Assembly: GCA_963787995.1 (NCBI GenBank)
Contig: CAWBEO010000001.1
Span: forward strand, 78,337 to 142,336
Length of the DNA: 64,000 nt
Source: an uncultured Acidobacteriaceae bacterium
Lineage (GTDB): Bacteria; Acidobacteriota; Terriglobia; Terriglobales; Acidobacteriaceae
Direction of reading: 5' to 3'
The position numbers were made by a program, and so were the translations under genes. The notes under the pieces are model-generated. The model searched no databases. It was not told the DNA's origin and saw nothing but the letters and a program-made list of their open reading frames with translations. Positions 7,395-40,300 of the stretch are shown in pieces (position 1 is the stretch's first letter; each line of letters starts with the position of its first letter).

Positions 7395-7416
7395 CGCGCA
7401 ATGACTTAAGCACACT

Positions 7417-9914: not shown

Positions 9915-10070
9915 ATGCTTGGAACGATTCTAGTCGTGATCTTAATCTTGGCGCTGTTGGGCGTTTTGCCGCGATGGCCGCATAGCAGGAATTGGGGATA
10001 CTACCCGAGCGGAGCGGTTGGACTAGTCCTCCTGATTATTGTCATTCTGCTGCTACTTGGACAAATTTGA
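9915..10070 (+). CDS. DUF3309-family small membrane protein
   Basis: MLGTILVVILILALLGVLPRWPHSRNWGYYPSG signature. Confidence 0.85.
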   Translation: MLGTILVVILILALLGVLPRWPHSRNWGYYPSGAVGLVLLIIVILLLLGQI

Positions 10071-10088
10071 GAGTGAAAGAGGAATGCA

Positions 10089-20812: not shown

Positions 20813-21231
20813 CCAGCCGTCAACCGGCGTTCGGCCAATCTACACAAGAACCACCCAAGCCAAGCAAATATTCCGAGCACTAAGCCGCCAAATACCCTAG
20901 AGAAGCTCTCATTCCACCACGGCGGATAAAAGCTATCTGAAGCGACGCCCAATAGCACAACATATACTATTGGATTTACTAGCATCATCCATGCGCTCGA
21001 CAATTCCCTGCGTAGCGAGACACCTATCAGGCCACCTGCTATGAATGGCGCTAGTATCGTTCTTACCATAGTATCGTAAGCCGCTGGAGGACTCCAGCCG
21101 CTATGGCGAAAGTCTGTAATGATCGGCCATATGCCATCCACAATACCTGAATCCAGCAGCACAAACACTACGAAGACTAGGAGCCAGAGTGAGAATCCCA
21201 ACAGCAAACGTATCGCACTATTTCTGGTCAT
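20794..21231 (-). CDS. Putative immunity protein of Rhs toxin 1 (about 4 TM)
   Basis: Start overlaps toxin stop (21228-21231); AT-rich; last codons and stop lie within the repeat element. Confidence 0.8.
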   Translation of the reverse strand: MTRNSAIRLLLGFSLWLLVFVVFVLLDSGIVDGIWPIITDFRHSGWSPPAAYDTMVRTILAPFIAGGLIGVSLRRELSSAWMMLVNPIVYVVLLGVASDSFYPPWWNESFSRVFGGLVLGIFAWLGWFLCRLAERRLTAGQVARS

Positions 21232-24200: not shown

Positions 24201-24416
24201 GGCCGAGGCCAGCGAGGCGGGGGTGGAGTACGGGCCGTAGGGGACGGTCTCGGTGAAGGCGTTGCCGGGGGTGTCTTGGAAGGCGATGGTCAGCGAGCCG
24301 GAGGAACTGCCCGACGCGCCCGTCAGGGTCACCGCCGCATCCGCCGCAAGAACCCGCGGGGCAAGGCAAAGCCCCATCCCCAGCAGCACAATCAGTTTGC
24401 GTGACACGCCGTTCAT
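21228..24416 (-). CDS. Rhs C-half toxin 1 with Sec signal; C-terminal Tlde1/DUF2778-like L,D-transpeptidase-fold toxin
   Basis: Core HFTGKERDAESGNDYFGARYY..MGRFMSPD, NNPLTRTDPTG cleavage motif; CT has GPIPEGRY and LHHGHVSDGCINV. Confidence 0.88.
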   Translation of the reverse strand: MNGVSRKLIVLLGMGLCLAPRVLAADAAVTLTGASGSSSGSLTIAFQDTPGNAFTETVPYGPYSTPASLASAFGAKFSKDYIASGLCAHAVGAVLYLHLKGADTFNLPLTLSSSTGPFTVTFNPPPPALAWVPPAPITRPAALSAAQLDAQVSVAGVLTACPISTAPAQPGTCYYTPQSGAVLPAGPQTLTVVYTPPTGSGFAPLTTSVTLNVLKTTPVITWPAPAAIPDTTLLGVAQFNANANVAGAFTYTNEAGKVLANSTTTGSGAPSLTIVGSPQLTAGEQMLFAAFIPSDAADYASLNLSVPITVTGAAYDTGTVTLTVGGTTVSTASYGQGDTPSTVAEKLTASTTQVAVTAVDDALYIEAKTTAIDLSYSLQATSWNSTLFAEPSFVPTPVTGNLEGGSASTTTTGLPVYTYTVPAGGYDPAGNLLAYADTVMGSWNFAYDTLNRLASAADSVSGLSLTPPGVTPYYCWAYDDFGNRTVQSPQSTPCPIQSASQWVFGANNQVTGVIAPGGSQPSPSPLNYDQAGDVVGDATTGNQYLYDAEGRICAVSALPGLGGFTMTGYLYDADGIRVAKGLLTAWSCDPSQNGFQTTTDFTLGLGGEQLSEIGVNVGTPSAGSASTASATISGTLLSGMNGAFIVLIGTLPNGESCVIDVNFGAGETGGTTSASIAAAIASQASCGGLITAAANGPVVTFTSTTVGSAANYTFSASLAGCNCSQSNPTTGLSISSSGAAMTGGTNAVTMGLTWQHTNVWAGGKLLGTYDADGLHFYLDDPLGTRRAQTDAAGVLEQTCVSLPYGDGLSCENPSGSPYFPSTQYPTEHHFTGKERDAESGNDYFGARYYASSMGRFMSPDPLPWLKWQNSGGDSTGKDSERKKFNEWIEDPQHLNMYAYVRNNPLTRTDPTGMAECSYSISGHTLVCTSNKPSAKLSGNQHEVDTVGPEGVFSGLGEKQNQLRFEFDRNGPIPEGRYKMNEYFIDSHDRFRLEPWPNDRMSRIFRYAHHFRFDGLGAQLHHGHVSDGCINVSEDSPHAMQQFGKVLDLLKKEDGKNYLTVTK

Positions 24417-24574: not shown

Positions 24575-25207
24575 TCATTTCTCGCAATATTGCATCAAAT
24601 CCCTTAATTGGGAACTCAACCCTGCGCCTGAAAAGTGTATATGTAATTTGTGCGGTAAGATTGTGCCGCCTATAGTGATGCCAGCATCCATAAACCCCCC
24701 ACTCATATCCGTAACGATCTTTTTCCATCTTTCTCTCGTACCTTTCAAATATGCTAATGCGAAATATCCATCACACTCAAATCCTGGATCATACCACTTT
24801 GAATCTCCATAAAGAGGGTACGTTACGATTTTTTCGATTTGTGACTTCAGATTTACTGACATTTCAAATGTACTCCCATTTTGCACATTATTAGGGATGT
24901 CCGGCCCAATAAACATAGACAACTCTTTATCTGGAATAATATCGTGAACATTTTCGATATATATTCCTAATACTGGGACTCCTGACTTTCCTGATTCAAT
25001 ATGTTCAAAAATAAATACACTTGCCTTCATCTTCTTGCCGCCATATTCTGCCTCAGCAGGAATGGAGATTGCAACTATATTTTTATCTACTTTACCATCA
25101 TCAGACATAACTGTTTTATGCCATGCAGCTTGAGCATGAGCAAGACTCGATATCGCAGAAAAAACGGTAATCAACACTACAATGAGAGAATTAAATCGAT
25201 TGTTCAT
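24575..25207 (-). CDS. Putative periplasmic immunity protein of Rhs toxin 2
   Basis: Overlaps toxin stop; signal peptide ending AHA-Q; AT-rich. Confidence 0.8.
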   Translation of the reverse strand: MNNRFNSLIVVLITVFSAISSLAHAQAAWHKTVMSDDGKVDKNIVAISIPAEAEYGGKKMKASVFIFEHIESGKSGVPVLGIYIENVHDIIPDKELSMFIGPDIPNNVQNGSTFEMSVNLKSQIEKIVTYPLYGDSKWYDPGFECDGYFALAYLKGTRERWKKIVTDMSGGFMDAGITIGGTILPHKLHIHFSGAGLSSQLRDLMQYCEK

Positions 25208-28128
25208 TTTTTCCCTTTCTTCTGTTCTTTCACTTTAGGTTTGTCATCTGGAAAGAATATTATCCGATAGTTATTAGCATCTTCTTCATAATGTCCGGTG
25301 CTGTTACCTCCAAAATTACGGTCCGACTCTCGAATGCTGGGCACACCATTCCATTGATCAACCATTTTCTCACCAGCAACCACCTTATCGCCAGTCTTTG
25401 TCTTGATTGTATGACTAAAAAATCCAAAATGGAACGCTGCGTGCCCGGTATGTGGCTTACTCCATGAATAAGTATTATTTGGCCCTGCAGCTGTTGCAAT
25501 AGCCGTTCCTATCGGCGTATTTGCATCAGGCTGAGGTCCAAATCTCCACCCTTTTGTAGAACCTGGCGCGTACTTTTGTATCAAAGCTACACATTCGGAT
25601 TTGCCATCAGAACTACTTATTACAGGTTCGCCACCACGCAGCGAACCAACGTCTGAAACGATTAACATATGATACCCTTTAGGTACATTTATTCCGCCAT
25701 TACCTGATGTACTAATTGCAGTTGGGTGCGATGCCTCATTAAATTTATTCCAAAGCTGCCAAATAAGATGACTCAATGGGTCAAAATATGAACCATGGCC
25801 ATCTGAGTCTATTCTATCCATTGGATTATTTTCAACATACGCATACAGATTCAAGGTCTGCGGATCATCCAGCTTCACATACGGAACCGGCTCTGCTTTG
25901 GCGCTCCAGTCGGGCGACATAAAGCGGCCCATGGCGCTGGAGTAGTAGCGGGCTTCGAAGTAGTCGTTGCCGGATTCGGCGTCGCGTTCTTTGCCGGTGA
26001 AGTGGTGTTCGGTGGGGTATTGGGTGCTGGGGAAGTAGGGCGAGCCGTTGGGATTTTCGCAGCTCAGATCGTCGCCGTAGGGAAGGCTGACGCAGGTCTG
26101 CTCCAGGACGCCGGCCGAGTCGGTTTGGGCGCGGCGGGTGCCAAGCGGGTCATCGAGATAGAAGTGCAGGCCGTCGGCGTCGTAGGTGCCGAGCAGCTTG
26201 CCGCCGGCCCAGACGTTGGTGTGCTGCCAGGTGAGCGTGGCGGTGACCGTGACGCTGGAGCCGGAGCCGGTGAGGGTCTGGTTGACGCCGATCTCCGAGA
26301 GCTGCTCGCCGCCCAGGCCGAGGGTGAAGTCGGTGGTGGTTTGGAAGCCGTTTTGGCTGGGGTCGCAGGACCAGGCGGTGAGGAGGCCTTTGGCGACGCG
26401 GATGCCGTCGGCGTCGTAGAGGTAGCCGGTCATGGTGAAGCCGCCCAGGCCGGAGAGGGCGCTGACGGCGCAGATGCGGCCCTCGGCATCGTAGAGGTAC
26501 TGGTTGCCGGTGGTGGCGTCGCCGACAACATCGCCCGACTGGTCGTAGTTCAGAGGCGAGGGCGAGGGCTGACTGCCACCCGGCGCGATGACGCCCGTGA
26601 CTTGGTTATTGGCGCCAAAGACCCATTGGGAGGCCGACTGAATCGGGCATGGAGTGGATTGCGGACTTTGCACCGTGCGGTTGCCGAAGTCGTCGTAGGC
26701 CCAGCAGTAGTAGGGGGTGACGCCGGGGGGCGTGAGGCTGAGGCCGGAGACAGAGTCGGCGGCGGAGGCGAGGCGGTTGAGCGTGTCGTAGGCGAAGTTC
26801 CAGGAGCCCATGACGGTGTCGGCATAGGCGAGCAGATTGCCGGCGGGGTCGTAGCCGCCCGCGGGAACGGTGTAGGTGTAGACCGGGAGGCCGGTGGTGG
26901 TGGTGCTGGCGGAGCCGCCTTCGAGGTTGCCGGTGACCGGTGTGGGAACGAAGGACGGCTCGGCGAAGAGCGTGGAGTTCCAACTGGTGGCCTGGAGGCT
27001 GTAGCTCAAGTCGATGGCCGTGGTCTTGGCTTCGATGTAGAGCGCGTCGTCAACGGCGGTAACGGCGACCTGGGTGGTGGAGGCGGTGAGCTTTTCAGCG
27101 ACCGTGGAGGGGGTGTCTCCTTGGCCGTAACTGGCTGTGGAGACTGTGGTTCCGCCCACGGTGAGGGTGACCGTGCCGGTGTCGTAGGCGGCCCCGGTGA
27201 CGGTGATGGGGACGGAGAGGTTGAGGCTGGCGTAATCGGCGGCGTCGGAGGGGATGAAGGCGGCGAAGAGCATCTGCTCGCCGGCGGTCAACTGCGGGCT
27301 GCCGACGATGGTAAGGCTGGGCGCGCCCGATCCCGTGGTGGTGGAGTTGGCCAGCACCTTGCCGGCCTCGTTGGTGTAGGTGAAGGCGCCGGCGACGTTG
27401 GCGTTGGCGTTGAACTGCGCGACGCCGAGGAGCGTGGTGTCGGGGATGGCGGCCGGCGCCGGCCAGGTGATTACCGGCGTGGTCTTGAGGACGTTAAGGG
27501 TGACGGAGGTGGTGAGGGGGGCGAATCCTGATCCGGTGGGCGGGGTGTAGACGACCGTGAGCGTCTGCGGGCCGGCGGGCAGAACGGCGCCCGATTGAGG
27601 CGTGTAATAGCATGTGCCCGGCTGCGCGGGCGCGGTTGAAATCGGGCAGGCGGTCAGCACACCTGCCACGCTGACCTGAGCGTCCAACTGCGCCGCACTC
27701 AGCGCCGCCGGACGGGTGATGGGCGCGGGAGGAACCCAGGCGAGGGCGGGCGGAGGCGGGTTAAATGTTACCGTGAAGGGCCCTGTGGAGCTGCTGAGGG
27801 TGAGCGGCAAATTGAAGGTATCCGCACCCTTCAGATGGAGGTACAGCACCGCGCCGACAGCGTGGGCGCAGAGGCCGGAGGCGATATAGTCTTTGGAGAA
27901 CTTGGCGCCGAAGGCCGAGGCCAGCGAGGCGGGGGTGGAGTACGGGCCGTAGGGGACGGTCTCGGTGAAGGCGTTGCCGGGGGTGTCTTGGAAGGCGATG
28001 GTCAGCGAGCCGGAGGAACTGCCCGACGCGCCCGTCAGGGTCACCGCCGCATCCGCCGCAAGAACCCGCGGGGCAAGGCAAAGCCCCATCCCCAGCAGCA
28101 CAATCAGTTTGCGTGACACGCCGTTCAT
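25204..28128 (-). CDS. Rhs C-half toxin 2 with Sec signal; C-terminal BPSL0067/Tae2-like peptidoglycan amidase
   Basis: Rhs core, NNPMDRIDSDG; CT has ECVALIQ (Cys), PIGTAIAT, GHAAF (His), DQW. Confidence 0.88.
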   Translation of the reverse strand: MNGVSRKLIVLLGMGLCLAPRVLAADAAVTLTGASGSSSGSLTIAFQDTPGNAFTETVPYGPYSTPASLASAFGAKFSKDYIASGLCAHAVGAVLYLHLKGADTFNLPLTLSSSTGPFTVTFNPPPPALAWVPPAPITRPAALSAAQLDAQVSVAGVLTACPISTAPAQPGTCYYTPQSGAVLPAGPQTLTVVYTPPTGSGFAPLTTSVTLNVLKTTPVITWPAPAAIPDTTLLGVAQFNANANVAGAFTYTNEAGKVLANSTTTGSGAPSLTIVGSPQLTAGEQMLFAAFIPSDAADYASLNLSVPITVTGAAYDTGTVTLTVGGTTVSTASYGQGDTPSTVAEKLTASTTQVAVTAVDDALYIEAKTTAIDLSYSLQATSWNSTLFAEPSFVPTPVTGNLEGGSASTTTTGLPVYTYTVPAGGYDPAGNLLAYADTVMGSWNFAYDTLNRLASAADSVSGLSLTPPGVTPYYCWAYDDFGNRTVQSPQSTPCPIQSASQWVFGANNQVTGVIAPGGSQPSPSPLNYDQSGDVVGDATTGNQYLYDAEGRICAVSALSGLGGFTMTGYLYDADGIRVAKGLLTAWSCDPSQNGFQTTTDFTLGLGGEQLSEIGVNQTLTGSGSSVTVTATLTWQHTNVWAGGKLLGTYDADGLHFYLDDPLGTRRAQTDSAGVLEQTCVSLPYGDDLSCENPNGSPYFPSTQYPTEHHFTGKERDAESGNDYFEARYYSSAMGRFMSPDWSAKAEPVPYVKLDDPQTLNLYAYVENNPMDRIDSDGHGSYFDPLSHLIWQLWNKFNEASHPTAISTSGNGGINVPKGYHMLIVSDVGSLRGGEPVISSSDGKSECVALIQKYAPGSTKGWRFGPQPDANTPIGTAIATAAGPNNTYSWSKPHTGHAAFHFGFFSHTIKTKTGDKVVAGEKMVDQWNGVPSIRESDRNFGGNSTGHYEEDANNYRIIFFPDDKPKVKEQKKGKK

Positions 28129-28285: not shown

Positions 28286-28822
28286 TCAACTTTCACATAG
28301 ATCATAGTCTGACGAGGTATCGGCTGCGTGTGTTAGGCGCCAGCCATCGTGGAACGCAAGCAGTGCATCGGGACCTAACCAATAGCGCTTGACTTTCGTG
28401 AAATCCTTTCGAACTGCTGATCGAACCGCGCGAAACAATTTCACAGATAGCTCTCTATCTGAAATCGTTGAAAAATCTCCCATGATAATCGTTCGTTCCC
28501 CCAACACTCCTCCAGGAGAAAAAAGTATCGATTCCGGATTGAAAATCTGTGTAACATCGAAACGGAGATTGCCATCAATCATTTTCATCGTCTCAACGCG
28601 AATATCATAGTTCTTCTCAACGATCAAATAGGAACCGCTATCGTGTGATCGTTTACCCATCGCGCGCCCCAAACTGGGAATCGCACTGTAGCTTTCATAT
28701 TTTTCAATAGTTGGTCCACTAATTCTCCCCGCTCTGACGTATTTGATCTCGTGAAAATTCTCAATCCTAGTCAAAAGTGCAATCAGATCTTTTTCGCAGG
28801 TGTAAACGTATATTGCACTCAT
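28286..28822 (-). CDS. Putative cytoplasmic immunity protein of Rhs toxin 3
   Basis: Probable start MSAIYVY overlapping the toxin stop, preceded by GGAGGG; no signal peptide; AT-rich. Confidence 0.75.
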   Translation of the reverse strand: MSAIYVYTCEKDLIALLTRIENFHEIKYVRAGRISGPTIEKYESYSAIPSLGRAMGKRSHDSGSYLIVEKNYDIRVETMKMIDGNLRFDVTQIFNPESILFSPGGVLGERTIIMGDFSTISDRELSVKLFRAVRSAVRKDFTKVKRYWLGPDALLAFHDGWRLTHAADTSSDYDLCES

Positions 28823-31800
28823 CTCGCCCTCCAGGTATCCGGTGGTCGTTGAGGCATCGGCGGTAATGGTTTGACTTGTCCCCACTTCGGTACCCAAAGG
28901 AGAATATCATTAGGGTATGCCTTGCGAATTCTACCAAGTGCTGCATCCTCTCTGGGCGTCGGAGCACCATTCGCATCTGTATCCACAGTCTGAATTCTTA
29001 CTCTAACTCCTGTATTTTCATCTTTCATCGTGGTATCCACCCAAGTGGATCCCATCGGTCCGCCTCCAATACCGGGAATGTATTCTTCACTTTGTTCACC
29101 ACCTCCATGTTCTACAACAAGCCCGAGGCGCTTCCAGCTTTGAGCAATATAATAATTTTGACGTCTCGTCATATTGCTGCCCCACCGTCCCCCTCCACCG
29201 CTGAGATATCTGAAGGCAAATCCTTCTAAATGACCGAATTGCTCGGCCAACCCAGCTTCTTGCTCAGGAGTGAGACTCGGGGCTTTTCGTGCAGCTGCCT
29301 CAGCTTTTTTATAGCTTTCAAGCTCATCTTTATAATCTTCCCATTTCTGTATTTCACGTAAATCTTCCGCATCTTCTTTGAGATTCTCCGGCTTTGCTTC
29401 AGTCTTAGGATCCTGTGTCTCCTGATGGCCATCTACATCAACACCTTCAAGTGGGTTATTGCCGACATAGGCATAGAGATTAAGCGTCTGCGGAGTGTCC
29501 AGCTTCGCATACGGCACCGGCTCTTCTTTGGCGCTCCAGTCGGGCGACATAAAGCGGCCCATGGCGCTGGAGTAGTAGCGGGCCCCGAAGTAGTCGTTGC
29601 CGGATTCGGCGTCGCGTTCCTTGCCGGTGAAGTGGTGTTCGGTGGGGTATTGGGTGCTGGGGAAGTAGGGCGAGCCGTTGGGATTTTCGCAGCTCAGGCC
29701 GTCGCCGTAGGGCAGGCTGACGCAGGTCTGCTCCAGGACGCCGGCCGAGTCGGTTTGGGCGCGGCGGGTGCCGAGCGGGTCGTCGAGATAGAAGTGCAGG
29801 CCGTCGGCGTCGTAGGTGCCGAGCAGCTTGCCGCCGGCCCAGACGTTGGTGTGCTGCCAGGTGAGCCCCATGGTGACCGCATTGGTTCCACCGGTCATGG
29901 CCGCGCCGGAAGAGGAAATCGACAGTCCTGTGGTGGGATTTGATTGAGAGCAGTTGCAGCCGGCGAGGGAGGCGCTGAATGTATAGTTGGCCGCCGATCC
30001 CACCGTCGTCGAGGTAAATGTCACCACGGGTCCATTGGCCGCGGCGGTGATCAAGCCCCCGCAACTGGCCTGCGAGGCTATTGCAGCCGCGATGGAGGCC
30101 GGCGTCGTTCCGCCCGTTTCTCCGGCTCCGAAATTTACATCGATTACGCAAGGCTCACCGTTCGGAAGCGTGCCGATGAGAACAATAAATGCGCCGTTCA
30201 TCCCCGATAGCAACGTGCCGGAGACGGTGGCCGAGGCGGTGGAGGCGCTACCTGCGCTTGGAGTACCGACGTTGACGCCGATCTCCGAGAGCTGCTCGCC
30301 GCCCAGGCCGAGGGTGAAGTCGGTGGTGGTTTGGAAGCCGTTTTGGCTGGGGTCGCAGGACCAGGCGGTGAGGAGGCCTTTGGCGACGCGGATGCCGTCG
30401 GCGTCGTAGAGGTAGCCGGTCATGGTGAAGCCGCCCAGGCCGGAGAGGGCGCTGACGGCGCAGATGCGGCCCTCGGCATCGTAGAGGTACTGGTTGCCGG
30501 TGGTGGCGTCGCCGACAACATCGCCCGACTGGTCGTAGTTCAGAGGCGAGGGCGAGGGCTGACTGCCACCCGGCGCGATGACGCCCGTGACTTGGTTATT
30601 GGCGCCAAAGACCCATTGGGAGGCCGACTGAATCGGGCATGGAGTGGATTGCGGACTTTGCACCGTGCGGTTGCCGAAGTCGTCGTAGGCCCAGCAGTAG
30701 TAGGGGGTGACGCCGGGGGGCGTGAGGCTGAGGCCGGAGACAGAGTCGGCGGCGGAGGCGAGGCGGTTGAGCGTGTCGTAGGCGAAGTTCCAGGAGCCCA
30801 TGACGGTGTCGGCATAGGCGAGCAGATTGCCGGCGGGGTCGTAGCCGCCCGCGGGAACGGTGTAGGTGTAGACCGGGAGGCCGGTGGTGGTGGTGCTGGC
30901 GGAGCCGCCTTCGAGGTTGCCGGTGACCGGTGTGGGAACGAAGGACGGCTCGGCGAAGAGCGTGGAGTTCCAACTGGTGGCCTGGAGGCTGTAGCTCAAG
31001 TCGATGGCCGTGGTCTTGGCTTCGATGTAGAGCGCGTCGTCAACGGCGGTAACGGCGACCTGGGTGGTGGAGGCGGTGAGCTTTTCAGCGACCGTGGAGG
31101 GGGTGTCTCCTTGGCCGTAACTGGCTGTGGAGACTGTGGTTCCGCCCACGGTGAGGGTGACCGTGCCGGTGTCGTAGGCGGCCCCGGTGACGGTGATGGG
31201 GACGGAGAGGTTGAGGCTGGCGTAATCGGCGGCGTCGGAGGGGATGAAGGCGGCGAAGAGCATCTGCTCGCCGGCGGTCAACTGCGGGCTGCCGACGATG
31301 GTAAGGCTGGGCGCGCCCGATCCCGTGGTGGTGGAGTTGGCCAGCACCTTGCCGGCCTCGTTGGTGTAGGTGAAGGCGCCGGCGACGTTGGCGTTGGCGT
31401 TGAACTGCGCGACGCCGAGGAGCGTGGTGTCGGGGATGGCGGCCGGCGCCGGCCAGGTGATTACCGGCGTGGTCTTGAGGACGTTAAGGGTGACGGAGGT
31501 GGTGAGGGGGGCGAATCCTGATCCGGTGGGCGGGGTGTAGACGACCGTGAGCGTCTGCGGGCCGGCGGGCAGAACGGCGCCCGATTGAGGCGTGTAATAG
31601 CATGTGCCCGGCTGCGCGGGCGCGGTTGAAATCGGGCAGGCGGTCAGCACACCTGCCACGCTGACCTGAGCGTCCAACTGCGCCGCACTCAGCGCCGCCG
31701 GACGGGTGATGGGCGCGGGAGGAACCCAGGCGAGGGCGGGCGGAGGCGGGTTAAATGTTACCGTGAAGGGCCCTGTGGAGCTGCTGAGGGTGAGCGGCAA

Positions 31801-32118
31801 ATTGAAGGTATCCGCACCCTTCAGATGGAGGTACAGCACCGCGCCGACAGCGTGGGCGCAGAGGCCGGAGGCGATATAGTCTTTGGAGAACTTGGCGCCG
31901 AAGGCCGAGGCCAGCGAGGCGGGGGTGGAGTACGGGCCGTAGGGGACGGTCTCGGTGAAGGCGTTGCCGGGGGTGTCTTGGAAGGCGATGGTCAGCGAGC
32001 CGGAGGAACTGCCCGACGCGCCCGTCAGGGTCACCGCCGCATCCGCCGCAAGAACCCGCGGGGCAAGGCAAAGCCCCATCCCCAGCAGCACAATCAGTTT
32101 GCGTGACACGCCGTTCAT
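28819..32118 (-). CDS. Rhs C-half toxin 3 with Sec signal; C-terminal putative nuclease (PD-(D/E)XK-like)
   Basis: Rhs core, NNPLEGVDVDG; CT has EEYIP...TWVDTTM...RIQTVDT; toxin class is inferred. Confidence 0.85.
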   Translation of the reverse strand: MNGVSRKLIVLLGMGLCLAPRVLAADAAVTLTGASGSSSGSLTIAFQDTPGNAFTETVPYGPYSTPASLASAFGAKFSKDYIASGLCAHAVGAVLYLHLKGADTFNLPLTLSSSTGPFTVTFNPPPPALAWVPPAPITRPAALSAAQLDAQVSVAGVLTACPISTAPAQPGTCYYTPQSGAVLPAGPQTLTVVYTPPTGSGFAPLTTSVTLNVLKTTPVITWPAPAAIPDTTLLGVAQFNANANVAGAFTYTNEAGKVLANSTTTGSGAPSLTIVGSPQLTAGEQMLFAAFIPSDAADYASLNLSVPITVTGAAYDTGTVTLTVGGTTVSTASYGQGDTPSTVAEKLTASTTQVAVTAVDDALYIEAKTTAIDLSYSLQATSWNSTLFAEPSFVPTPVTGNLEGGSASTTTTGLPVYTYTVPAGGYDPAGNLLAYADTVMGSWNFAYDTLNRLASAADSVSGLSLTPPGVTPYYCWAYDDFGNRTVQSPQSTPCPIQSASQWVFGANNQVTGVIAPGGSQPSPSPLNYDQSGDVVGDATTGNQYLYDAEGRICAVSALSGLGGFTMTGYLYDADGIRVAKGLLTAWSCDPSQNGFQTTTDFTLGLGGEQLSEIGVNVGTPSAGSASTASATVSGTLLSGMNGAFIVLIGTLPNGEPCVIDVNFGAGETGGTTPASIAAAIASQASCGGLITAAANGPVVTFTSTTVGSAANYTFSASLAGCNCSQSNPTTGLSISSSGAAMTGGTNAVTMGLTWQHTNVWAGGKLLGTYDADGLHFYLDDPLGTRRAQTDSAGVLEQTCVSLPYGDGLSCENPNGSPYFPSTQYPTEHHFTGKERDAESGNDYFGARYYSSAMGRFMSPDWSAKEEPVPYAKLDTPQTLNLYAYVGNNPLEGVDVDGHQETQDPKTEAKPENLKEDAEDLREIQKWEDYKDELESYKKAEAAARKAPSLTPEQEAGLAEQFGHLEGFAFRYLSGGGGRWGSNMTRRQNYYIAQSWKRLGLVVEHGGGEQSEEYIPGIGGGPMGSTWVDTTMKDENTGVRVRIQTVDTDANGAPTPREDAALGRIRKAYPNDILLWVPKWGQVKPLPPMPQRPPDTWRAR

Positions 32119-32147: not shown

Positions 32148-35100
32148 TTACTGCAGTGTGACAACCGCTTCAATGACGCCCTTGCCGGAGTCGAGCGAGC
32201 CGAGGGCCTTGCCGATGACCGCGCCCAACATGCGGCTGCGGTCGGTGCCCTTCATGGCATAACCGGTGGTGGAGGATGCGACCAGCAGATCGCCGATTTT
32301 GATGGGGCCGTTTTCCGCGCTCACCTTGACGGGGACAATGCCCACCAAGGCCATAGGCACCTCATCGGGAGATTTCGGGGTGGTCTGGCGGCGGCCTACG
32401 GTGCCGGGCTTGGTGGAATAGATGCCGGTGACCAGCGTCGAATAGGCCTCGTTGGACTTGAGGAACTTGCCGGGCGCGCTGGGATCAATGACCAGCACGT
32501 CGCCCGGCGTGAAGTTCTTGCGGTCGCCGGAGACATTGACCGACTCGGCATAGTCGCCGCCGCAGGTGACGCCGGTGTAGGCGGTGGACTGGGTGGTGCC
32601 GTCAGAGAAGGTGAGGGCGCCGCCGCTGCCGCTGGTCAACGTGATACCGCCGTTGACTTCGAGCTTCGCGCCGGGGGTGGTTGTGCCGATGCCGAGTGAA
32701 CCGGCTCCGGTCAAAAACATCAGAGTCGTTCGCGGGGTTCCGCTGATAGGAGCGTTCATGAACGCAAATCCACCCGATCCGCCGCCCTGATTATTGATGA
32801 AGTCCGTTTCTCCTGTGCCCTTGGTTAGCGCATTCCAGCCCAAATACGCACCCTGTGCTGCTGTTGTGGGGTTCGTATTTCCTGACACATGCAAGTAACC
32901 GTTGACATCAAGAGGCACCGCGGGAATCGTCGTTCCTATTCCCACGTTTCCACTTGGTATAACGACGTTCGTCCACCCGCCCTGGTTGATTGTCAAGGTT
33001 CCAGTTTGTGCCTGAATGACGCTCCAGGCTGACCCTGCGCCGCCTATTGATAGAGCACCTGAAGTTCCGCCAGGATATCCGCTTCCTGAAGTGCCAGTGA
33101 TCACTATGTTCCCCGCCACGTCTAAGGCTGAAGCCGGTGTCGTCGTCCCGATCCCGACGCTGCCGGAAGTATTCCAAATTCCGTTTCCGGGAAAATTCGT
33201 GTTTGCGGTGAATGTCTGCGGCGCGCTCCATGTCGTGGCGCTGACCGTCGGCCAGGATGTGATGCAGTTTGTGCCATTGATGCAGTAGCCGCCCGATGAA
33301 TTGATCTGGCCAGAAACGTCGAGCTTAAAAGCTGGTGTCGTCGTGCCGATGCCGACGCTGCCGAGGCCTAAATAATATTGCGACGCATAAAATCCCATTG
33401 GGGTATAAGCAGTATTGGCATCGTTAATCGAAAGAATGCCTGGCGTTCCGCTGAAAGCGCTATTTACATTGGAAATAAAATTTATGTGCTGATTGGTTCC
33501 CAATTTAATATCAACATTGCCGATCGGTGACGTCGTTCCAAACCCGACACTTCCGCCTCCATTGACCACCAACGCCTGCGGAGTGATTTTTGTTCCTGTT
33601 GGATTAAACACTTGCAGGGCCAGATAATCCGATCCCTGAGTTGTGCTTCCCGTATGAGTGAACTGATAAGCGTAAGCGGACGGGTTGAAGATGGCTCCAG
33701 TAGTAATCTCCTGATTGAATGCAAGCGAGCCAAAAGTGGTTCCCCCATCGCCTGGATCAATGCTTACGCCTGTTCCATTACTGTTGATATCGAGCTTGCT
33801 GCTTGGAGTAGTCGTGCCAATACCGACGTTTTCAGAGGGCAACTGAGTGATCACGGAGTTGGTAAGCGTAGAAGTAGTGGGAGAGGAAGGAGTGGTCAGC
33901 AAGGGCACGTTGCCTACAATGGGAGTCACTGACTTGGCGACCACGATGCTCTGCGTCACAGTAGGGGCCGCAGAATAAGTGCTGTTGCCGGCCTGCGTCG
34001 CCTGAATGGTGCAAGTACCTGTGGCAAGGAAGGTTGCCGTTGTGCCGGAGACGGTGCAAACACTGGTCGTAGTCGAGGCAAAGCTGACGGCCAAACCAGA
34101 ACTGGCCGTAGCTGTTAGAGTCAGCGGCGTACCTACTGTCTGCAAAGCAATATATGGGAAACTAATGGTCTGCGCAGTGCCATTGACAGTAAAGCTCTGT
34201 GTCACGGTAGGGGCCGCAGCGTAAGCGCTGTTGCCGGCCTGCGTCGCCTGAATGGTGCAAGTGCCAGCGGCAATGAAGGTTGCCGTCGTTCCAGAGACGG
34301 TGCAAACGCTCGTCGTCGTCGAGGCGAAGCTGACAGTCAAACCAGAACTGGCTGTAGCTGTAAGCGTTAGTGGCGTTCCTATGCTCTGTGTGCTGGGAGC
34401 GGCAAAGGTGATAGTCTGCGACTTCGAATTAACACTAAAGCTCTGTGTCACGGCAGGGGCCGCAGTGAAGGAGCTGTTGCCGGCCTGCGTCGCCTGAATG
34501 GTGCATGTGCCTGTGGCGATGAAAGTTGCTGTCGTGCCGGAAACTGTGCAAACGCTGGTCGTTGTCGAGGCAAAGCTGACGGCCAAACCAGAGCTAGCCG
34601 TAGCCGAAAGCGTCAGCGGTGTCCCCACCGTCTGGGTGCTGGGAGCGGCAAAGGTGATGGTCTGCGATCCTATGCTGGCAGTAAAGCTCTGTGTCACCGC
34701 CGGGGCCGCAGCGTAAGTGCTGTTGCCGGCCTGCGTCGCCTGAATGGTGCATGTGCCCGTGGCAATAAAGTTTGCCGTCGTGCCAGAGACTGTGCAAACG
34801 CTGGTCGTTGTCGAGGCAAAGCTGACGGCCAAACCAGAGCTAGCCGTAGCCGAAAGCGTCAGCGGTGTTCCCACCGTCTGGGGGCTGGGAGCGGCAAAGG
34901 TAATGGTCTGCGCCTTGCCATTGACAGTAAAGCTTTGTGTCACCACAGGAGCGGCAGCGTAAGTGCTGTTGCCTGCCTGCGTTGCCTGAATGGTGCAAGT
35001 GCCGGCGGCGAGGAATGTGGCAGTTGTGCTGGAGACAGTGCAAATGCTAGTCGTCGTCGAGGCAAAGCTGACTGCCAAACCAGAACTCGCCGTGGCCGAA

Positions 35101-37091
35101 AGCGCCAGAGGTGTTCCTACCGTCTGGGGTCCGGGATTAGAGAAGGTGATGGTCTGCGGATCGCCATTAACAGCAAAGCTCTGTGTCACAGTAGGGGCCG
35201 CAGAGTAAGTGCTATTGCCGGCCTGCGTCGCCTGAACGGTGCAAGTACCAGAGGCAATGAAGGTTGCCGTAGTGCCGGAGACAGTGCAAACGCTGGTCGT
35301 AGTCGAGGCGAAGCTGACCACCAATCCAGAGCTGGCCGTGGCCGAAAGCGCCAAGGTAGTTCCCACCGCCTGCGTGCTGGGGGCGGCAAAGCTGATGGTC
35401 TGCGCCATAGGATTGACGCTAAAGCTTTGCGTCACCGCAGTAGCCGCAGCGTAAACACTGTTGCCAGCCTGCGTCGCCTGAATGGTGCATGTGCCTGTGG
35501 CAAAGAAGCTCGCCGTCGTGCCAGAGACGGTGCAAACGCTGGTCGTGGTCGAGGCGAAGCTGACTGCCAAACCAGAACTCGCCGTGGCCGAAAGCGCCAG
35601 AGGCGTTCCTATGGTCTGGGTACTGGGAGCGGCAAAGGTAATGGTCTGAGCCTCGCCATTGACCGGGAAGCTCTGCGCGACCTGTGGGGCTGCCGCATAG
35701 GTAGAGTTGCCAGGCTGGTTTGCGTCAATGGTGCAGGTACCAGCCGCGAGGAATGTGGTAGTCGTGCCGGAGACGGTGCAGATGGAAGTGGTAGCAGATG
35801 TGAAGCTAACTGCCAATCCAGAACTGGCTGCGGCCACTAGCGTCATCGGCGTCCCTACCGTTTGGGTTACAGGAGTCAGGAAGTTAATTGTCTGCGATTT
35901 GCCGTTGACCGTGAAGCTCTGAGGAACCATCGAAGCTGCCGCATAGGTGGAGTTGCCCGACTGGTTCGCGTCAATGGTGCAGGTGCCAGTGGCAATAAAC
36001 GTGGCCGTGGTGCCGGAGACAGAGCAGACGGATGTGGTGGCCGATGTGTAGCTGACTGCCAAGCTGGAACTGGCAGTGGCTGTAAGTGCCAGAGGCGATC
36101 CCACCGTTTGGGTTCCGGGATTTGGGAAGCTGATAGTCTGCGATTCGCCGTTGACCGTGAAGCTCTGCGAGACCTGTGGGGCCGCCGCATAGGTGCTGTT
36201 GCCCGACTGGTTCGCAACGATGGTGCAAGTGCCGGCGGCAATAAACGTGGCTGCGCTGCCGGAGAGGGTGCAAATGGAGGTGGTGGCCGATGTGAAGCTG
36301 ACTGCCAGGCTGGAACTCGCCGTGGCAGAGAGCGTAAGAGGTGTTCCCACTGTCTGGGTTCCTGGATTTGGGAAGCTGATGGTTTGAGCGCTGAGGACCG
36401 TGAAGCTCTGCGCGACCTGTGGGGCCGCCGTATAGCTGCTATTGCCCGCCTGGTTCGCGTCGATGGTGCACGTGCCAGCGGCAATAAACGTGGCTGTGGC
36501 GCCGGAGACAGTGCAGACGGATGTGGTGGCCGATGTGAAGCTGACAGCCAATCCGGAGCTGGCCGAAGCTGAGAGCGTCAGAGGCGTTCCTACCGTCTGA
36601 GTTGCAGGAGTCGAGAAATTAATGGTCTGTGCCCAGACAATAGAAGCACTACCGCCACCTCCATTCCCAGGATAGAAAGTAATTGTGAAACCAGTACCAT
36701 TTAGAGGAAGACCAGAGGGAGGTTCTGCGCCCTGCGGCACGCCAGTCGCACAAGTGCCGTTCCACACTAGGTAGCTCGCCGTTCCAGAAAGAGATGTTAC
36801 TACGCCAGTGGCGCTGGTAAAGGTAAAGCCACTGAAGTTGTACTGCATCATAGTTTCATTATTTGGACCACAAGACTCGTTCGTTACTGTAGAGACAGTC
36901 CAACTGAGTGTTCCGCCGCCCACGCTGAGACTTTGAGCGCGCGCTACTTGTAGGGCCATAGTTCCCATCAAGATGAGCAATACTGTCACGGTCGAGCAGA
37001 GTTTCACGAAGACTCTTGCGACAGCCGCTCCGCTGCAGTTACATACAGATCCCCAACCGATTTTGCGCTTGCCATCTACACGAGGTTGCAT
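32148..37091 (-). CDS. Fibre/adhesin protein: signal peptide, 11 Ig-like repeats, GIGTTTP fibre repeats, C-terminal peptidase G2-like intramolecular chaperone
   Basis: AGGAG RBS before ATG 37091; repeats as listed; GGDYAE...GDVLVI...GIYSTKPG...LVGIVPVKV...GDLLV...GAVIGKAL C-terminus. Confidence 0.88.
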   Translation of the reverse strand: MQPRVDGKRKIGWGSVCNCSGAAVARVFVKLCSTVTVLLILMGTMALQVARAQSLSVGGGTLSWTVSTVTNESCGPNNETMMQYNFSGFTFTSATGVVTSLSGTASYLVWNGTCATGVPQGAEPPSGLPLNGTGFTITFYPGNGGGGSASIVWAQTINFSTPATQTVGTPLTLSASASSGLAVSFTSATTSVCTVSGATATFIAAGTCTIDANQAGNSSYTAAPQVAQSFTVLSAQTISFPNPGTQTVGTPLTLSATASSSLAVSFTSATTSICTLSGSAATFIAAGTCTIVANQSGNSTYAAAPQVSQSFTVNGESQTISFPNPGTQTVGSPLALTATASSSLAVSYTSATTSVCSVSGTTATFIATGTCTIDANQSGNSTYAAASMVPQSFTVNGKSQTINFLTPVTQTVGTPMTLVAAASSGLAVSFTSATTSICTVSGTTTTFLAAGTCTIDANQPGNSTYAAAPQVAQSFPVNGEAQTITFAAPSTQTIGTPLALSATASSGLAVSFASTTTSVCTVSGTTASFFATGTCTIQATQAGNSVYAAATAVTQSFSVNPMAQTISFAAPSTQAVGTTLALSATASSGLVVSFASTTTSVCTVSGTTATFIASGTCTVQATQAGNSTYSAAPTVTQSFAVNGDPQTITFSNPGPQTVGTPLALSATASSGLAVSFASTTTSICTVSSTTATFLAAGTCTIQATQAGNSTYAAAPVVTQSFTVNGKAQTITFAAPSPQTVGTPLTLSATASSGLAVSFASTTTSVCTVSGTTANFIATGTCTIQATQAGNSTYAAAPAVTQSFTASIGSQTITFAAPSTQTVGTPLTLSATASSGLAVSFASTTTSVCTVSGTTATFIATGTCTIQATQAGNSSFTAAPAVTQSFSVNSKSQTITFAAPSTQSIGTPLTLTATASSGLTVSFASTTTSVCTVSGTTATFIAAGTCTIQATQAGNSAYAAAPTVTQSFTVNGTAQTISFPYIALQTVGTPLTLTATASSGLAVSFASTTTSVCTVSGTTATFLATGTCTIQATQAGNSTYSAAPTVTQSIVVAKSVTPIVGNVPLLTTPSSPTTSTLTNSVITQLPSENVGIGTTTPSSKLDINSNGTGVSIDPGDGGTTFGSLAFNQEITTGAIFNPSAYAYQFTHTGSTTQGSDYLALQVFNPTGTKITPQALVVNGGGSVGFGTTSPIGNVDIKLGTNQHINFISNVNSAFSGTPGILSINDANTAYTPMGFYASQYYLGLGSVGIGTTTPAFKLDVSGQINSSGGYCINGTNCITSWPTVSATTWSAPQTFTANTNFPGNGIWNTSGSVGIGTTTPASALDVAGNIVITGTSGSGYPGGTSGALSIGGAGSAWSVIQAQTGTLTINQGGWTNVVIPSGNVGIGTTIPAVPLDVNGYLHVSGNTNPTTAAQGAYLGWNALTKGTGETDFINNQGGGSGGFAFMNAPISGTPRTTLMFLTGAGSLGIGTTTPGAKLEVNGGITLTSGSGGALTFSDGTTQSTAYTGVTCGGDYAESVNVSGDRKNFTPGDVLVIDPSAPGKFLKSNEAYSTLVTGIYSTKPGTVGRRQTTPKSPDEVPMALVGIVPVKVSAENGPIKIGDLLVASSTTGYAMKGTDRSRMLGAVIGKALGSLDSGKGVIEAVVTLQ
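33930..36632 (-). repeat. Coding tandem repeat: 11 x ~246 bp (82-aa Ig-like unit QTITF..QTVGTPLTLSATASSGLAVSF..VCTVSG..GTCTI)
   Basis: Counted 11 units in the translation; shadow ORFs recur at 246-bp spacing (34006, 34252, 34498, 34744, 34990). Confidence 0.95.
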
Positions 37092-37138
37092 GGTTTCTCC
37101 TAAGTCGATCTTCTGGGTGTGCATTCCGTGCGCGAAAT

Positions 37139-37378
37139 TCATTCGCTCAGTTCCGAAAGTGTGCGATTATTACCTGTGTCCCCGACAGAAAGATTGCTGA
37201 ATGAATCGAATGCAGCCCCGTCAGGCACAAAGAAATCATTTGTTCTAGCCGAGCTATTGAGAACCGCAGATCGATGAGCATTCGCAACGCCGACTATCCG
37301 ATTCGCGCCAGCGTAGCCTGTTTGATAGATTGCAGATAACCCGCTGCCCGGATCGCCGGCTCCATGCTCTTTACTCAT
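37139..37378 (-). pseudogene. Degenerate NHL-repeat fragment
   Basis: PDGAAFDSFSNLSVGDTGNNR resembles NHL PxGVAFDxxGNLYVADTGNNR; start overlaps upstream stop (ATGA). Confidence 0.5.
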
Positions 37379-40300
37379 TTGCTCTGCTCCGATCCTGTGA
37401 TGGTCACCGTCGCCGAAGCGCCCGTCGCATTTGTAACAGCGCCCCCCAGATCCTGCTCGCTGAGAATCCGCAGCCGGTTGTCATAGGTGCGGTTCAGCGA
37501 AATGGCGGCACTGCTGCTGCTCGTGGTAGCTGCGCCAAAGAACGCTTTGGCCAGTCCGCCAAAGGCAGCATAGGACGGCTGCGTCGAAGAAGGAATTGCT
37601 GAAAACAGCACAGCCGGATACGTGGTGCCGCTGATCCAGTTGCTGCTTAGAGACTGCAACCGTCCAGCTCCGTTATAGGAGCTGGTAAAGGTGAGTGGCT
37701 GAGTAGGCGAAGGGGCTGTCCCATCTGTTGACGAAGTGAGGTCGCCGGCCAGATCGTAGCCGTATTGCAGTTGATACCCCGTCGTCGGATTAGCTATTGT
37801 CTTCTGGTTCTCGTTCGCAACGCGACCCATCTGGTCATAACACTGTATTGATCGCATGGTTAAAAATCCGCTTACAGGCACTGGCGTCTGGCATGATTTT
37901 GTCGAAGCGCTCTGCGTCCATGCATATGTCAATCGTCCAGTCCAGTTGCCATATCCAGTAGGACAACTGGCTGAAGACAAGCTGTATTGGTAGCACGACA
38001 ACGGAGTCCCATTAGGATCATTGGAATATATCTTGCTTAAGAGGCGATTCATGTTGTCATAACTGTAATTTGTCGTTATGCCGCGCGCATCTGTTTTATG
38101 GAGCAGATTTCCATTGGGGTCATAACCAAAATTTGACAAACAGTTCGATCCGTTTGCTGGCGAACCGCCAGTAGTTCCATAGCATACCCATCCAGTCTCG
38201 GGATTAAAAGACTGAGTCAGCCTCGATAGGCTGTCATACGTAAATGTTCTGGATGCTCTCGACGTGCCGTTTGATCCACTGCCCCATTGATTGACTGCCA
38301 GCAGATTGTTGAGCACGTCGTATGAATAGTCAGTCTCCATCGACGGCGCCTTGCTGGTCCCATTTGGCTCAAAGACATGAGTCATCTGCCCTAAAGCGTT
38401 CTGCGTCCGCTGCCAGTCGCTTCCATTTTCGTCGGCGTCATCTTCCCACGTGCCTGCATTCAAGCTCAGACTCGCATAGCAGCTTGTCTGGCCAGGTGTC
38501 GTGTAGATGCCATTGAAGCAAGCCTGCTTCTTCGTTCCGTCAGGGTTGATAACAACCGTCTTCCGGCTTAGCGCGTCGTAGGCGTATGTGGTAACGCCTG
38601 TGGTAACGCCATAAGTCAATTCGCTCTTGCTTCTGTATGGATTGGACACGCTCGCAACTCGACCGAGAGAATCATATGTTGTGTCCGTGAGAACAACCCC
38701 ATCCGGATCGGAAAGTAACTGTGTTTGCGTCAAGCGTCCAAGCCCATCGGCATACGCCACTTTTGTGAGACACCCAGTTCCGTTTTTTTGGCATATTTGA
38801 GGTGTGCTGGTTATTCCTTTCGAAAAAGACACAGAAAGTTGGCCCACCGCATCATCATAGGAGAGTGCTTCCCAGCCAGTATCCGGATAAATAACTCCAA
38901 TCAGCCTTCGCATCGGATCGTATGTATAGGTTGTTGTCTGGCTATTTACATCTGTATGAAACATCAGCAGGCCAGTGTTGTCATCGTATGTTGGATATTC
39001 AGAAGAGGTATCCGGATATATAATTTTACTTAGGTATAATCCGCTGCAATCATACGTTAAATACGTAATTTTTTGATTAGCATCGATTTTCTGGGTAGGC
39101 ATCCCTATAAAAGTATTGCTTAGGCATGGTTTTGTTGTGCTGTTTGGATTGTATAAACTTTCTGGACCGAATACATTTTGCGTTGTGACATAGGACGCAG
39201 GGCTGGTATTGACCCAGCGCGAAACAGAAGTCTGAAGCCCCCATGTTGTGGCCGTACCACCTGCATCATAGCCATAGCTTGTTTGTGCAGCCTGGGTGCC
39301 ACCAAGCCCACCAGCCAATACTGTATCAGAACTGGGCAGATCGATCAGATTTCTGGCGTAGTAGTTCCAGTTTGACTGCCAGAGTTTCGTATGCTGCATG
39401 GTGCGTATAGCAGGAAGTTGCGTGCTGATAAGAGGAGGATTGTACGACAACACTGACAGCGATCCGGGGGCCGCGCTGGACCAGTCCGATTCGCTGGAGG
39501 AGGTCACCAGTCCAAAGCTGAAGGGGTGGGTGTTCCCTATGTAGTCCTGATAACTTCCGAAAGTATCATATGAAGATTGATCTTGACTGTAGATCGGTTT
39601 CGCGTTGGTTGCCAGATTGGTTGTAACAATATTCGGAAATACTCCAACTGCAATATAGTTGGAAAAGTTCGTCGGGTTGGCATAATCCGTTCCCGTGTAG
39701 GAGTATGCTGTATCAACTTCCTTAAGCAACTTCGATGCGCCCTGAAAATACTGCGTCTTCGTCTCCCACGGTCCGCAAGTAGACCCTCCAATGAGGGAGA
39801 AGGTGTGTACTGTTGAATTCCCAAGTGGATCTGCGACCGTGACCGTCCCCGAATTCGGTCCGCCCGGAGATGCAATCACGCCTGGGTTTACTTTAGAATT
39901 GCCATCGCTAATTTCAGTGGCATTGTATTCGATCGACGATGAAGCTTGAGCAGGTGGTGCGCCTATCCAACCAGATCCTAATCCATTGTTGTAAACCCAA
40001 TGCTCAGTCGGAATTGAATCCGTGGCATTAAGGTATACATATCGATCGGTCACCATCGGGCTTGACAGAATATTTGTATATGGCCAGACGGGCGTCCCCA
40101 CAACTGGAATCTGCCCGGGTGGGTTACCACAAGCCAAACGCCAAGCATACTGATAAGTTACCATAGCCCCAGTTGGCATAATAACCTGATCAACCTGCCC
40201 AAACTGGTCATACCCGAATTTCCAATATGTTGGCGTTACCGGATTCGGAAGTTGTACGCTCGTCAGAACCCACCATTTCTCATTGATTGTCTCTGGCTTA

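Follow-up and report, generated by a model that had tools for sequence, protein, structure and literature searches.

Our analysis of a 64,000-nucleotide stretch of DNA (the window) points, with moderate confidence, to a family-wide fission of an Rhs/YD cage, in which a short strand at the exact C-terminus of the larger chain (B) may complete in trans a small alpha/beta domain (dom2) of the toxin-bearing chain (C), acting as a latch at the seam. From homologous proteins and loci compared at the sequence level, we infer that B and C co-assemble and that the B tail binds dom2. The strand has a near-invariant sequence, corresponds to the first element of an insert found in single-chain relatives, and occurs in those sampled loci in which the partner C carries dom2.

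Organization of the B and C genes

The source organism is a soil acidobacterium. The genes concerned, all on the minus strand, and the elements of B are as follows:

41546-45997, minus strand: gene A (P0006), upstream of B, with no Pfam family
37375-41424, minus strand: gene B (P0007 on record), 1349 aa starting at MNSKM, encoding the N-terminal and larger share of the Rhs/YD shell
37450-37503, minus strand: last YD hairpin of B (ISLNRTYDNRLRILSEQD), its counterpart in the alignment being YDGRLRVTSETDS in contiguous P0095, with a matching segment in every B homologue
37378-37425, minus strand: B tail unit TGASATVTITGSEQSK, a conserved C-terminal strand tag and the candidate beta0 strand supplied in trans
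37375-37377, minus strand: TGA stop of B, its position conserved family-wide
32148-37142, minus strand: gene P0002, with an Ig-repeat region, a fibre and an intramolecular-chaperone-like C-terminus, between B and the C array
28819-32118, minus strand: gene C1, with TIGR03696 Rhs_assc_core (E 5e-17) and domain HMM matches
25204-28128, minus strand: gene C2, its N-terminal 620 aa the same as in C1, with a different toxin tip (BPSL0067-family)
21228-24416, minus strand: gene C3, sharing its N-terminal half with C1 and C2 and ending in a third toxin tip

The longest open reading frame of B reaches 41595 on the minus strand, and its translation (37375-41595) terminates ...ISLNRTYDNRLRILSEQDLGGAVTNATGASATVTITGSEQSK ahead of the TGA, the C-terminus reading ...YDNRLRILSEQD...TGASATVTITGSEQSK-stop. 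B carries a Sec-type signal peptide (ending ...SSVARA, before QADFEKG) and YD (RHS) repeats (PF05593 RHS_repeat, E 4e-28; TIGR01643, E 3e-10), and ends before any Rhs core, none being found in it by Pfam and NCBIfam domain scans. At E<=1 the Pfam scan returned RHS_repeat, DUF6443 (below cut-off) and a chance match to CNP1, with neither SpvB nor TcdB_toxin_mid in B. Searching the PDB by sequence gave weak Rhs matches for B and nothing for C. Read-through of the TGA was ruled out, as the frame closes after 26 unrelated codons.

C1 comprises, in order, a signal peptide, a head unit, a first alpha/beta domain (dom1), two Ig-like domains, dom2, the C-terminal part of the YD shell, the Rhs core and a toxin. 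The elements of the C proteins that bear on the junction are:

28015-28053 (C2), 32005-32043 (C1) and 24303-24341 (C3), minus strand: head unit (DAAVTLTGASGSS in C2), a degenerate version of the tail unit that lines up with TATITVNGxEQSG in 15 homologues
27754-28011 (C2), 31744-32001 (C1) and 24042-24299 (C3), minus strand: dom1, alpha/beta domain with the head unit as its first strand (HMM E ~1e-37 in C2)
26914-27192 (C2), 30904-31182 (C1) and 23202-23480 (C3), minus strand: dom2, the alpha/beta domain at the junction, not preceded by a unit of its own (HMM E ~2e-36 in C2)
26770-26886 (C2), 30760-30876 (C1) and 23058-23174 (C3), minus strand: resumption of the YD repeats (PVYTYTVPAGGYDPAGNLLAYADTVMGSWNFAYDTLNRL), which aligns in C2 with the segment directly after the B-like part in P0095

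All three C proteins start MNGVSRKLIVLLGMGLCLAPRVLAADAAVTLTGASGSSSGSLTIAF..., and translation bore out the original prediction that B ends on a strand motif, that C1-C3 begin DAAVTLTG (the mature N-terminus after the signal peptide) and that their YD repeats resume later, at PVYTYTVPAGGYDPAGNLLAYADTVMGSWNFAYDTLNRL (residues 415-453). Dom2 lies immediately ahead of the resumed repeats and is identical in sequence across C1-C3; the C-terminal tips differ. About 290-300 non-insert shell residues separate the resumed repeats from the Rhs core (TIGR03696, E 2e-16 to 5e-17, all three exceeding the 32.5-bit curated cut-off). Shell and core are not united on one polypeptide, B being core-less and each C bringing a signal peptide and only the last ~290 shell residues; neither chain alone amounts to a full cage.

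Conservation of the B tail

The tag T.GSATVTITG.EQ.. is the shared end of ~155 B homologues from Acidobacteriaceae; the strict end pattern occurs in 130 of 234, with ~25 further near misses. The stop falls exactly five residues past the invariant Gly in 135 of the 148 homologues in which the tail columns were compared (G 100%, T at position -10 93%, E 91%, Q 91%, I 90%), and the tail ranks among the most conserved stretches of B in the homologue alignment. The original prediction had allowed that the stop might be a sequencing error or a strain-specific nonsense mutation; its conserved position in those ~155 homologues speaks against both, and makes a sequencing error very unlikely. Pfam holds no family for the strand unit, dom1 or dom2.

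The invariant G-x-E-Q might be read as a chemical cross-link, an ester or isopeptide covalently joining the chains; Thr-Gln and Lys-Asn bonds of this kind occur in Gram-positive adhesins. The conserved E and Q are flanked by Thr, and the E-Q signature is retained in nearly all canonical copies of the unit, but this conservation is the sole basis for the reading, no catalytic constellation was identified, and the window's C head lacks E-Q and still models as an ordered strand. We regard a cross-link as highly improbable.

The break site in contiguous homologues

That contiguous Acidobacterial Rhs proteins run through the junction had been suggested, and five such homologues were found (P0095, P0107, P0115, P0123 and P0126). 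P0095 is insert-free, YDGRLRVTSETDS being followed directly by AVYAYSTSY..NVSGLTDSVMGTWNYGYDTLNRL, and places the break between consecutive YD repeats. In the other fused relatives strand units and small alpha/beta domains occur in the numbers 1+1 (P0107), 3+3 (P0123) and 4+4 (P0126); the unit count of P0115 is ambiguous, and the unit of P0107 is degenerate (-3.1 on a scoring matrix derived from 134 B tails). The four units of P0126 form a block ahead of its four domains, for which a nested topology is the candidate arrangement that one-to-one pairing requires. In the fused proteins the insert opens with the tail unit, so the alignments place the break one strand into an exterior insert; the original prediction was right about the YD repeats and the inserted domain, and wrong in putting the break at the edge of that domain.

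The two similar strands had also been taken for a duplication. They were not made by the split: by the same alignments, single-chain relatives carry the unit in tandem repeats, and the B tail and C head are successive copies of it. Within the window the likeness is slight, as ATVTITG and AAVTLTG share five of seven residues in Thr/Val-rich sequence, and when the tail matrix is run over the window's C the head is outside the top four matches, the best of which (-2.9) is roughly at shuffle level (95th percentile -4.5). The canonical heads (TATITVNG[SA]EQSG) of 15 homologous C proteins score 14-19 on the same matrix (shuffle maximum 7.7), and the window's C head aligns with them column for column, in a register checked by eye. 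Because it aligns to heads that score so highly on the B-tail matrix, the window's C head is, on this alignment, a genuine instance of the shared unit in degenerate form, one that has lost the E-Q signature. The claim that B ends and C starts on the same motif thus holds by way of the homologues and is weak within the window itself.

In the phylogenetic tree fused and split forms are interleaved, and well-supported branches force at least two changes, the tree being otherwise poorly resolved. This interleaving bears on whether B and C assemble at all. B could be a YD adhesin that lacks a toxin, with the C proteins acting on their own as small Rhs toxins, or the stop could be a pseudogenising mutation or sequencing error, and the two genes are indeed non-adjacent in the window, where the 5-kb gene P0002 separates them. 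However, not only is the stop conserved, but fused relatives join exactly the B and C parts, and the ~290 shell residues of C are too few to enclose a toxin, known Rhs shells having ~1000 aa. It is very unlikely that the two do not assemble.

Co-variation of the B tail and dom2

Seven related loci were found with a 120-aa B-tail alignment. In the window, as in L002, L003, L005, L006, L007, L009 and L010, there is a C-type gene after B; in L005 and L010 the two are directly adjacent. Where B is tagged, the partner C has dom2 ahead of its resumed YD repeats in eight of eight distinct loci; where B is untagged ('short-end'), dom2 is missing from the partner in all five (L013-L017), these being raw locus counts that include shared ancestry. 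A census of 133 C-type proteins found 79 with one domain and no strong unit, 35 with two domains and one strong unit, and 15 with two domains and no strong unit, those inspected having degenerate or truncated heads. Among the 129 dom2-bearing C proteins none had equal counts of strong units and domains, and no cis unit for dom2 was found.

The original prediction held that the B tail joins the subunits by exchange with the C head, pairing with or swapping for the similar strand at the mature N-terminus and so displacing or extending beta0 of dom1. The canonical heads do share the motif of the tail, the head strand is ordered in the AlphaFold model of dom1, and the adjacent B-C pairs of L005 and L010 have a C head of the canonical type. 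Against this, the C proteins of L002/L011, L003, L006, L007 and L009, all partners of tagged B proteins, have neither head unit nor dom1, like the 79 one-domain proteins of the census; the B tail is equally conserved where C is head-less; the unit and dom1 stand internally in P0167 and P0173, behind NHL and other domains; and the window's own head lacks the signature. With the head unit missing from so many C proteins that pair with a tagged B, this exchange is unlikely as a general mechanism, and the claim gives way to co-variation of the tail with dom2.

The tail could instead serve another partner or role, docking to A or to the fibre protein P0002, zippering B to B through beta-strands, or acting as a flexible tether, rather than latching B to C. 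At its C-terminus A has a strand resembling the unit, TTQVVVKGSEKSS (42371-42409), and two domains resembling dom2 (41549-42199), one strand against two domains being a misfit to the unit:domain rule, and is found upstream of B in L003 and L004 also. A homologue of the fibre part of P0002, missed by default BLASTP and found without composition correction, lies again between B and C in L016, so that a fibre gene occupies this place in two kinds of locus. The unit is modelled as disordered in the fused P0107. However, A and the fibre gene are missing from the tagged-B loci L002, L005, L009 and L010, across the sampled loci dom2 in C always occurs with the tail and never without it, and the unit is internal in the fused proteins, hence not a signal specific to a C-terminus. 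Such a role for the tail is doubtful, though the least improbable of the alternatives weighed here.

Predicted structures

An AlphaFold model of the window's C head with dom1 (m91a040f285e4; mean pLDDT 84.6, pTM 0.79) has the head unit as strand E3-9 of its own domain, with a block-mean pLDDT of ~88, which suggests that the unit can be an ordered strand when modelled with such a domain. P0107, the only fused homologue folded (residues 850-1730), gave the unit and linker pLDDT < 50 and no secondary structure, and its dom2 folds without them (pLDDT 66-86); the models were read by pLDDT and secondary structure. A tail predicted to be disordered had been named as evidence against the original prediction, and the P0107 model bears this out in part. 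The unit:domain counts, the co-variation and the cis C-head model fit strand donation; the fused P0107 model leaves the unit undocked. The fused-homologue model matches the shells of Rhs, teneurin and TcB-TcC proteins. In a Foldseek search the matches of dom1 were weak (best E 5e-3, TM 0.5-0.6) and fell on flagellin outer domains and phage tail decoration domains; the likeness of the modelled dom1 to a flagellin outer domain is a lead, not a classification.

Proposed mechanism

Under the preferred reading, that the B tail completes dom2, B would form most of the shell and each C would supply the last ~300 shell residues, the Rhs core plug and the toxin. The chains would close into a cage by associating after export, since each has its own Sec signal peptide and closure must then follow export, as for TcB and TcC. 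The break falls between two consecutive YD hairpins, where single-chain relatives have an exterior insert made up of as many strand units (T.GSATVTITG.EQS) as small alpha/beta domains. Fission after the first unit leaves B ending exactly on an orphan strand and C with a unit-less dom2, which the strand may enter in trans as beta0, making a strand-complementation latch outside the seam, alongside continuity of the shell sheet. As dom2 is identical in the three C variants, the single B could serve as docking partner for each.

We put forward more tentatively the broader proposal that the B tail is a natural 'split-domain tag', a donor strand of 11-16 residues completing a flagellin-outer-domain-like alpha/beta domain, with nested, zipper-like pairings explaining the equal counts, one shell accepting any toxin cartridge, and the gene splitting and re-fusing repeatedly. 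The nearest analogy is donor-strand complementation in chaperone-usher pili and engineered split-domain tags, where a strand-deficient domain is completed by a strand of another polypeptide. It is an analogy only, as the folds are unrelated (here an alpha/beta domain missing its first strand, there an Ig domain missing its last), no chaperone is evident here, and the interaction proposed for B and C comes from sequence comparison.

Relation to known Rhs and Tc proteins

The Tc toxin BC components (TcdB2-TccC3 of Photorhabdus, 4O9X; YenB-YenC2 of Yersinia, 4IGL) likewise form one YD/Rhs cage from two separately encoded chains, an arrangement that fused homologues and synteny suggest here, with a C chain that carries an Rhs core and a variable toxin and several alternative C genes per B. 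Natural fused TcB-TcC forms also exist (PMC6425310). The P0107 model matches the Tc shell (4o9x, E 4e-17). Unlike the Tc proteins, the window's B lacks the SpvB and TcdB-mid propeller domains, and the upstream A, considered as a TcA-type translocator, matched no Pfam or NCBIfam family and hence none of the TcA families. The present break lies ~350 residues ahead of the C-terminal cleavage motif, whereas in TccC3 the distance is ~680 residues; B and C here both have Sec signal peptides; and the exterior insert with a conserved strand tag at the seam has no known counterpart in Tc toxins.

Single-chain Rhs effectors (RhsA, 7Q97; Tse5, 8CP6; RhsP, 8H8A; Salmonella bongori Rhs, 8QJC) and teneurins share the YD shell, the Rhs-associated core and a polymorphic C-terminal toxin with immunity genes, and are the best structural matches (8qjc, E 6e-26). 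They differ in being one polypeptide, delivered by a T6SS or standing as a membrane protein, and not Sec-exported. We know of no insert of strand units and alpha/beta domains at the corresponding hairpin in these proteins. The tag:domain rule is new, and our literature search turned up no account of split non-Tc Rhs cages or of the B-tail tag.

To our knowledge, two-chain Rhs cages are understood for Tc toxins only. In the family described here B accounts for >150 protein clusters and C for hundreds, and the near-invariant short C-terminal strand, whose presence predicts a particular tag-less domain on the partner, offers a testable handle on how Sec-exported halves meet and close around a toxin outside the cytoplasm. 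If the strand is a latch, it would account for the identical 5' halves of the three toxin genes and for the easy splitting and fusing at the junction, and would constitute a natural peptide-domain docking pair.

Organization of the Locus

The whole locus, comprising gene A, gene B for the larger N-terminal part of the YD shell, a fibre gene and three C genes (C1-C3) for the rest of the shell, the Rhs core and the toxin, lies on the minus strand, with small ORFs downstream of C1 and of C2.

Genes of the split Rhs locus in the window
41546-45997, minus strand, gene A (protein P0006), 1483 aa, known family none
37375-41424, minus strand, gene B, 1349 aa on record, the ORF reaching 41595
32148-37142, minus strand, Ig-repeat/fibre gene (P0002), 1664 aa, downstream of B
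28819-32118, minus strand, C1, downstream of the fibre gene
25204-28128, minus strand, C2
21228-24416, minus strand, C3

Family profile searches detected RHS repeats (PF05593, E 4e-28) and no Rhs core in B; each of C1-C3 carries a Rhs-associated core (TIGR03696, E ~1e-16 to 1e-17), and their C-terminal tips differ from one another. Both B and each C start with a Sec-type signal peptide, as judged from sequence. The ends were as originally predicted: B finishes with ...ISLNRTYDNRLRILSEQDLGGAVTNATGASATVTITGSEQSK and TGA at 37375-37377, the C proteins start with ...PRVLAADAAVTLTGASGSSSGSLTIAF, with the YD repeats restarting at residue 415 (PVYTYTVPAGGYDPAGNLLAYADTVMGSWNFAYDTLNRL). We refer to the short strand motif T.GSATVTITG.EQ as the unit, to a B protein ending on it as tagged, to the alpha/beta domain after the unit at the C head as dom1 and to that just before the YD repeats resume as dom2. 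The end of gene A (41549-42409, minus strand) encodes a unit-like strand (TTQVVVKGSEKSS) followed by a pair of dom2-like alpha/beta domains, of which the latter is broken up by a low-complexity loop; gene A of locus L004 has the same kind of end (...AGFTQPSFSVKAN). Optional 135-aa inserts of C1 (29866-30270, minus strand) and C3 (22164-22568, minus strand) match the dom2 HMM (E 8e-8 and ~4e-5, respectively), thus the dom2 family is used at a second shell site.

Conservation of the B Terminus

Searching for homologues of the C-terminal 257 residues of B revealed a large family of 1100-1370-aa proteins of Acidobacteriaceae, including Granulicella and Terracidiphilus MAGs, nearly all of which end alike. 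The exhaustive representative search found the strict end pattern in 130 of 234 B homologues, with ~25 more near misses, and a further 24 of the 234 were 'short-end' forms that stop ~20 residues sooner, right behind the YD hairpin (...ETATHP and similar). The consensus from 148 tails aligned at their invariant Gly was (percent conservation) T93-x-G87-S-A85-T81-V79-T79-I90-T78-G100-x-E91-Q91-x-x, with the stop exactly five residues past this Gly in 135 of them (91%), and the tail falls in columns that vary little or not at all in a full-length alignment of 64 homologues whose mean column identity is 23%. Judged by these tails, a sequencing error or strain-specific nonsense mutation can for practical purposes be excluded, and the separation of B and C is almost certainly a genuine, conserved fission. 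In P0258, a 616-aa B-type fragment, the tag (AAKITITGAEQES) runs without a stop into non-Rhs beta-rich repeats, so the tag can lead into other displayed domains too. The B gene of the L007 MAG (6558-10318) is split into two ORFs of 980 and 340 aa by a frameshift or assembly error.

Contiguous Relatives

Single-chain Acidobacterial Rhs proteins crossing the junction do exist, as the original prediction supposed, in the form of five longer proteins (P0095, P0107, P0115, P0123 and P0126). P0095 (1811 aa) joins YDGRLRVTSETDS directly to AVYAYSTSYTHNSNVSGLTDSVMGTWNYGYDTLNRL, the first aligning with the end of the last hairpin of B, the second with the YD repeats as they restart in C. Two YD repeats that follow each other thus flank the break, as proposed, and whatever stands between them is an insert. 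This insert holds a single unit (GTITVNGAES) with a single small alpha/beta domain in P0107, three of each in P0123, four consecutive units followed by four domains in P0126, and two clear units with at least three domains, an ambiguous count, in P0115. The unit is indeed shared by B tail and C heads, but the 'duplicated strand' was not made by the split: units stand in tandem in single-chain proteins, so it is a repeat unit with the gene break after its first copy. In a maximum likelihood tree of the B-type part the fused, tagged and short-end forms are interleaved; its well-supported branches require two or more changes per label, so that fission, fusion or insert loss occurred more than once, with little resolution at the deep nodes.

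The Unit and Its Domains

The unit occurs as TATITVNG[SA]EQSG in 15 homologous C proteins, either immediately behind where the signal peptide is cleaved off or further in, past NHL or other domains, with dom1 always next; the C head of the window is in register with this alignment, its E-Q signature lost. AlphaFold2 modelled residues 24-135 of the window's own C from the 15-homologue alignment with mean pLDDT 84.6 and pTM 0.79, the unit forming strand E3-9 (block-mean pLDDT ~88) ahead of two strands, a helix and four strands. In cis the unit is thus predicted to be an ordered strand belonging with dom1, for which Foldseek gave weak resemblance at best, to flagellin outer domains and phage tail decoration domains.

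HMMs of dom1 and dom2 were run against all retrieved loci, with L002 and L011, being one record, counted once. Dom2 was present in C of every tagged-B locus with a C within reach (the window, three times, L002, L003, L005, L006, L007, L009 and L010), whereas it was not found by this search in C of five short-end loci (L013-L017), giving eight with and none without against none of five, counts uncorrected for kinship. In L013-L017 the YD repeats of C resume right behind an Ig domain, and the L016 C has one unit and one dom1-like domain in cis. Among tagged-B loci, dom1 and the head unit occurred only in the window, L005 and L010. Joining of the subunits by exchange between B tail and C head, as originally proposed, would use the unit common to both, but the head unit is missing from most C proteins paired with a tagged B, and the C head of the window scores no better than chance on the tail matrix, making this less likely as a general rule.

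A third homologue search supplied 133 C-type proteins for a wider census, which found one domain and no strong unit in 79, two domains and one strong unit in 35, no domain in four, and two domains without a strong unit in 15, including C1-C3 of the window, those inspected having degenerate or truncated heads; in none of the 133 did strong units equal domains in number. The unit/domain rule read from the sequences is that fused proteins have as many units as domains, a split C always falls one unit short and a tagged B carries exactly one orphan unit.

Neighbouring Genes and Known Systems

The C-terminal 560 aa of P0002 (fibre and chaperone-like; 32148-37142, minus strand) are 38% identical (E 2e-101) to an L016 gene (12649-14721) that also lies between B and C, in an unrelated short-end locus. 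The N-terminal domain of P0002 (SLSVGGGTLSW...C) opens genuine C-type Rhs halves in L002 (14018-19351; one record with L011), L017 (12597-15491) and P0155, and its 82-aa Ig repeats recur in the N-terminus of the L017 C-type half; the fibre gene seems to recur across split Rhs loci. Directly upstream of short-end B genes stands a conserved gene of ~290-306 aa, and L013 and L014 encode a ~195-200-aa secreted helical protein between B and C (neighbour genes: L013 2312-3205 and 6594-7178; L014 7890-8495; L015 6740-7603; L016 8075-8995); tagged-B loci have neither gene.

A model of the fused homologue matches T6SS Rhs cores (8qjc, E 6e-26), RhsA, teneurins and TcdB2-TccC3. B is not a TcB, because family searches found no SpvB or propeller families in it, nor is A a TcA by the same kind of search, and in Tc toxins the break lies much farther from the core than here. 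No description of the B/C family or the tag was found in the literature searched. What is new here is the conserved tag, together with the rule linking units and domains.

Possible Assembly of B and C

B and C would together form one cage in the manner of TcB and TcC, which do so jointly in the Tc case (PMC6425310), and such co-assembly is quite probable. The B tail may then supply the first strand of dom2 in trans; dom2 lies at the point at which the chain returns to the shell, and the pairing would clamp the seam from outside. For this full mechanism we see an even chance. Against it speaks the P0107 model (residues 850-1730, mean pLDDT 66.9), in which the unit and linker (pLDDT <50) are without secondary structure and dom2 folds by itself (pLDDT 66-86); the P0107 unit is itself degenerate on the tail matrix. 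The block order of units then domains in P0126, which would need nested pairing, is another weak point. If true, a clamp between B tail and dom2 would explain the identical 5' halves of the three C genes, all of which must fit one B.
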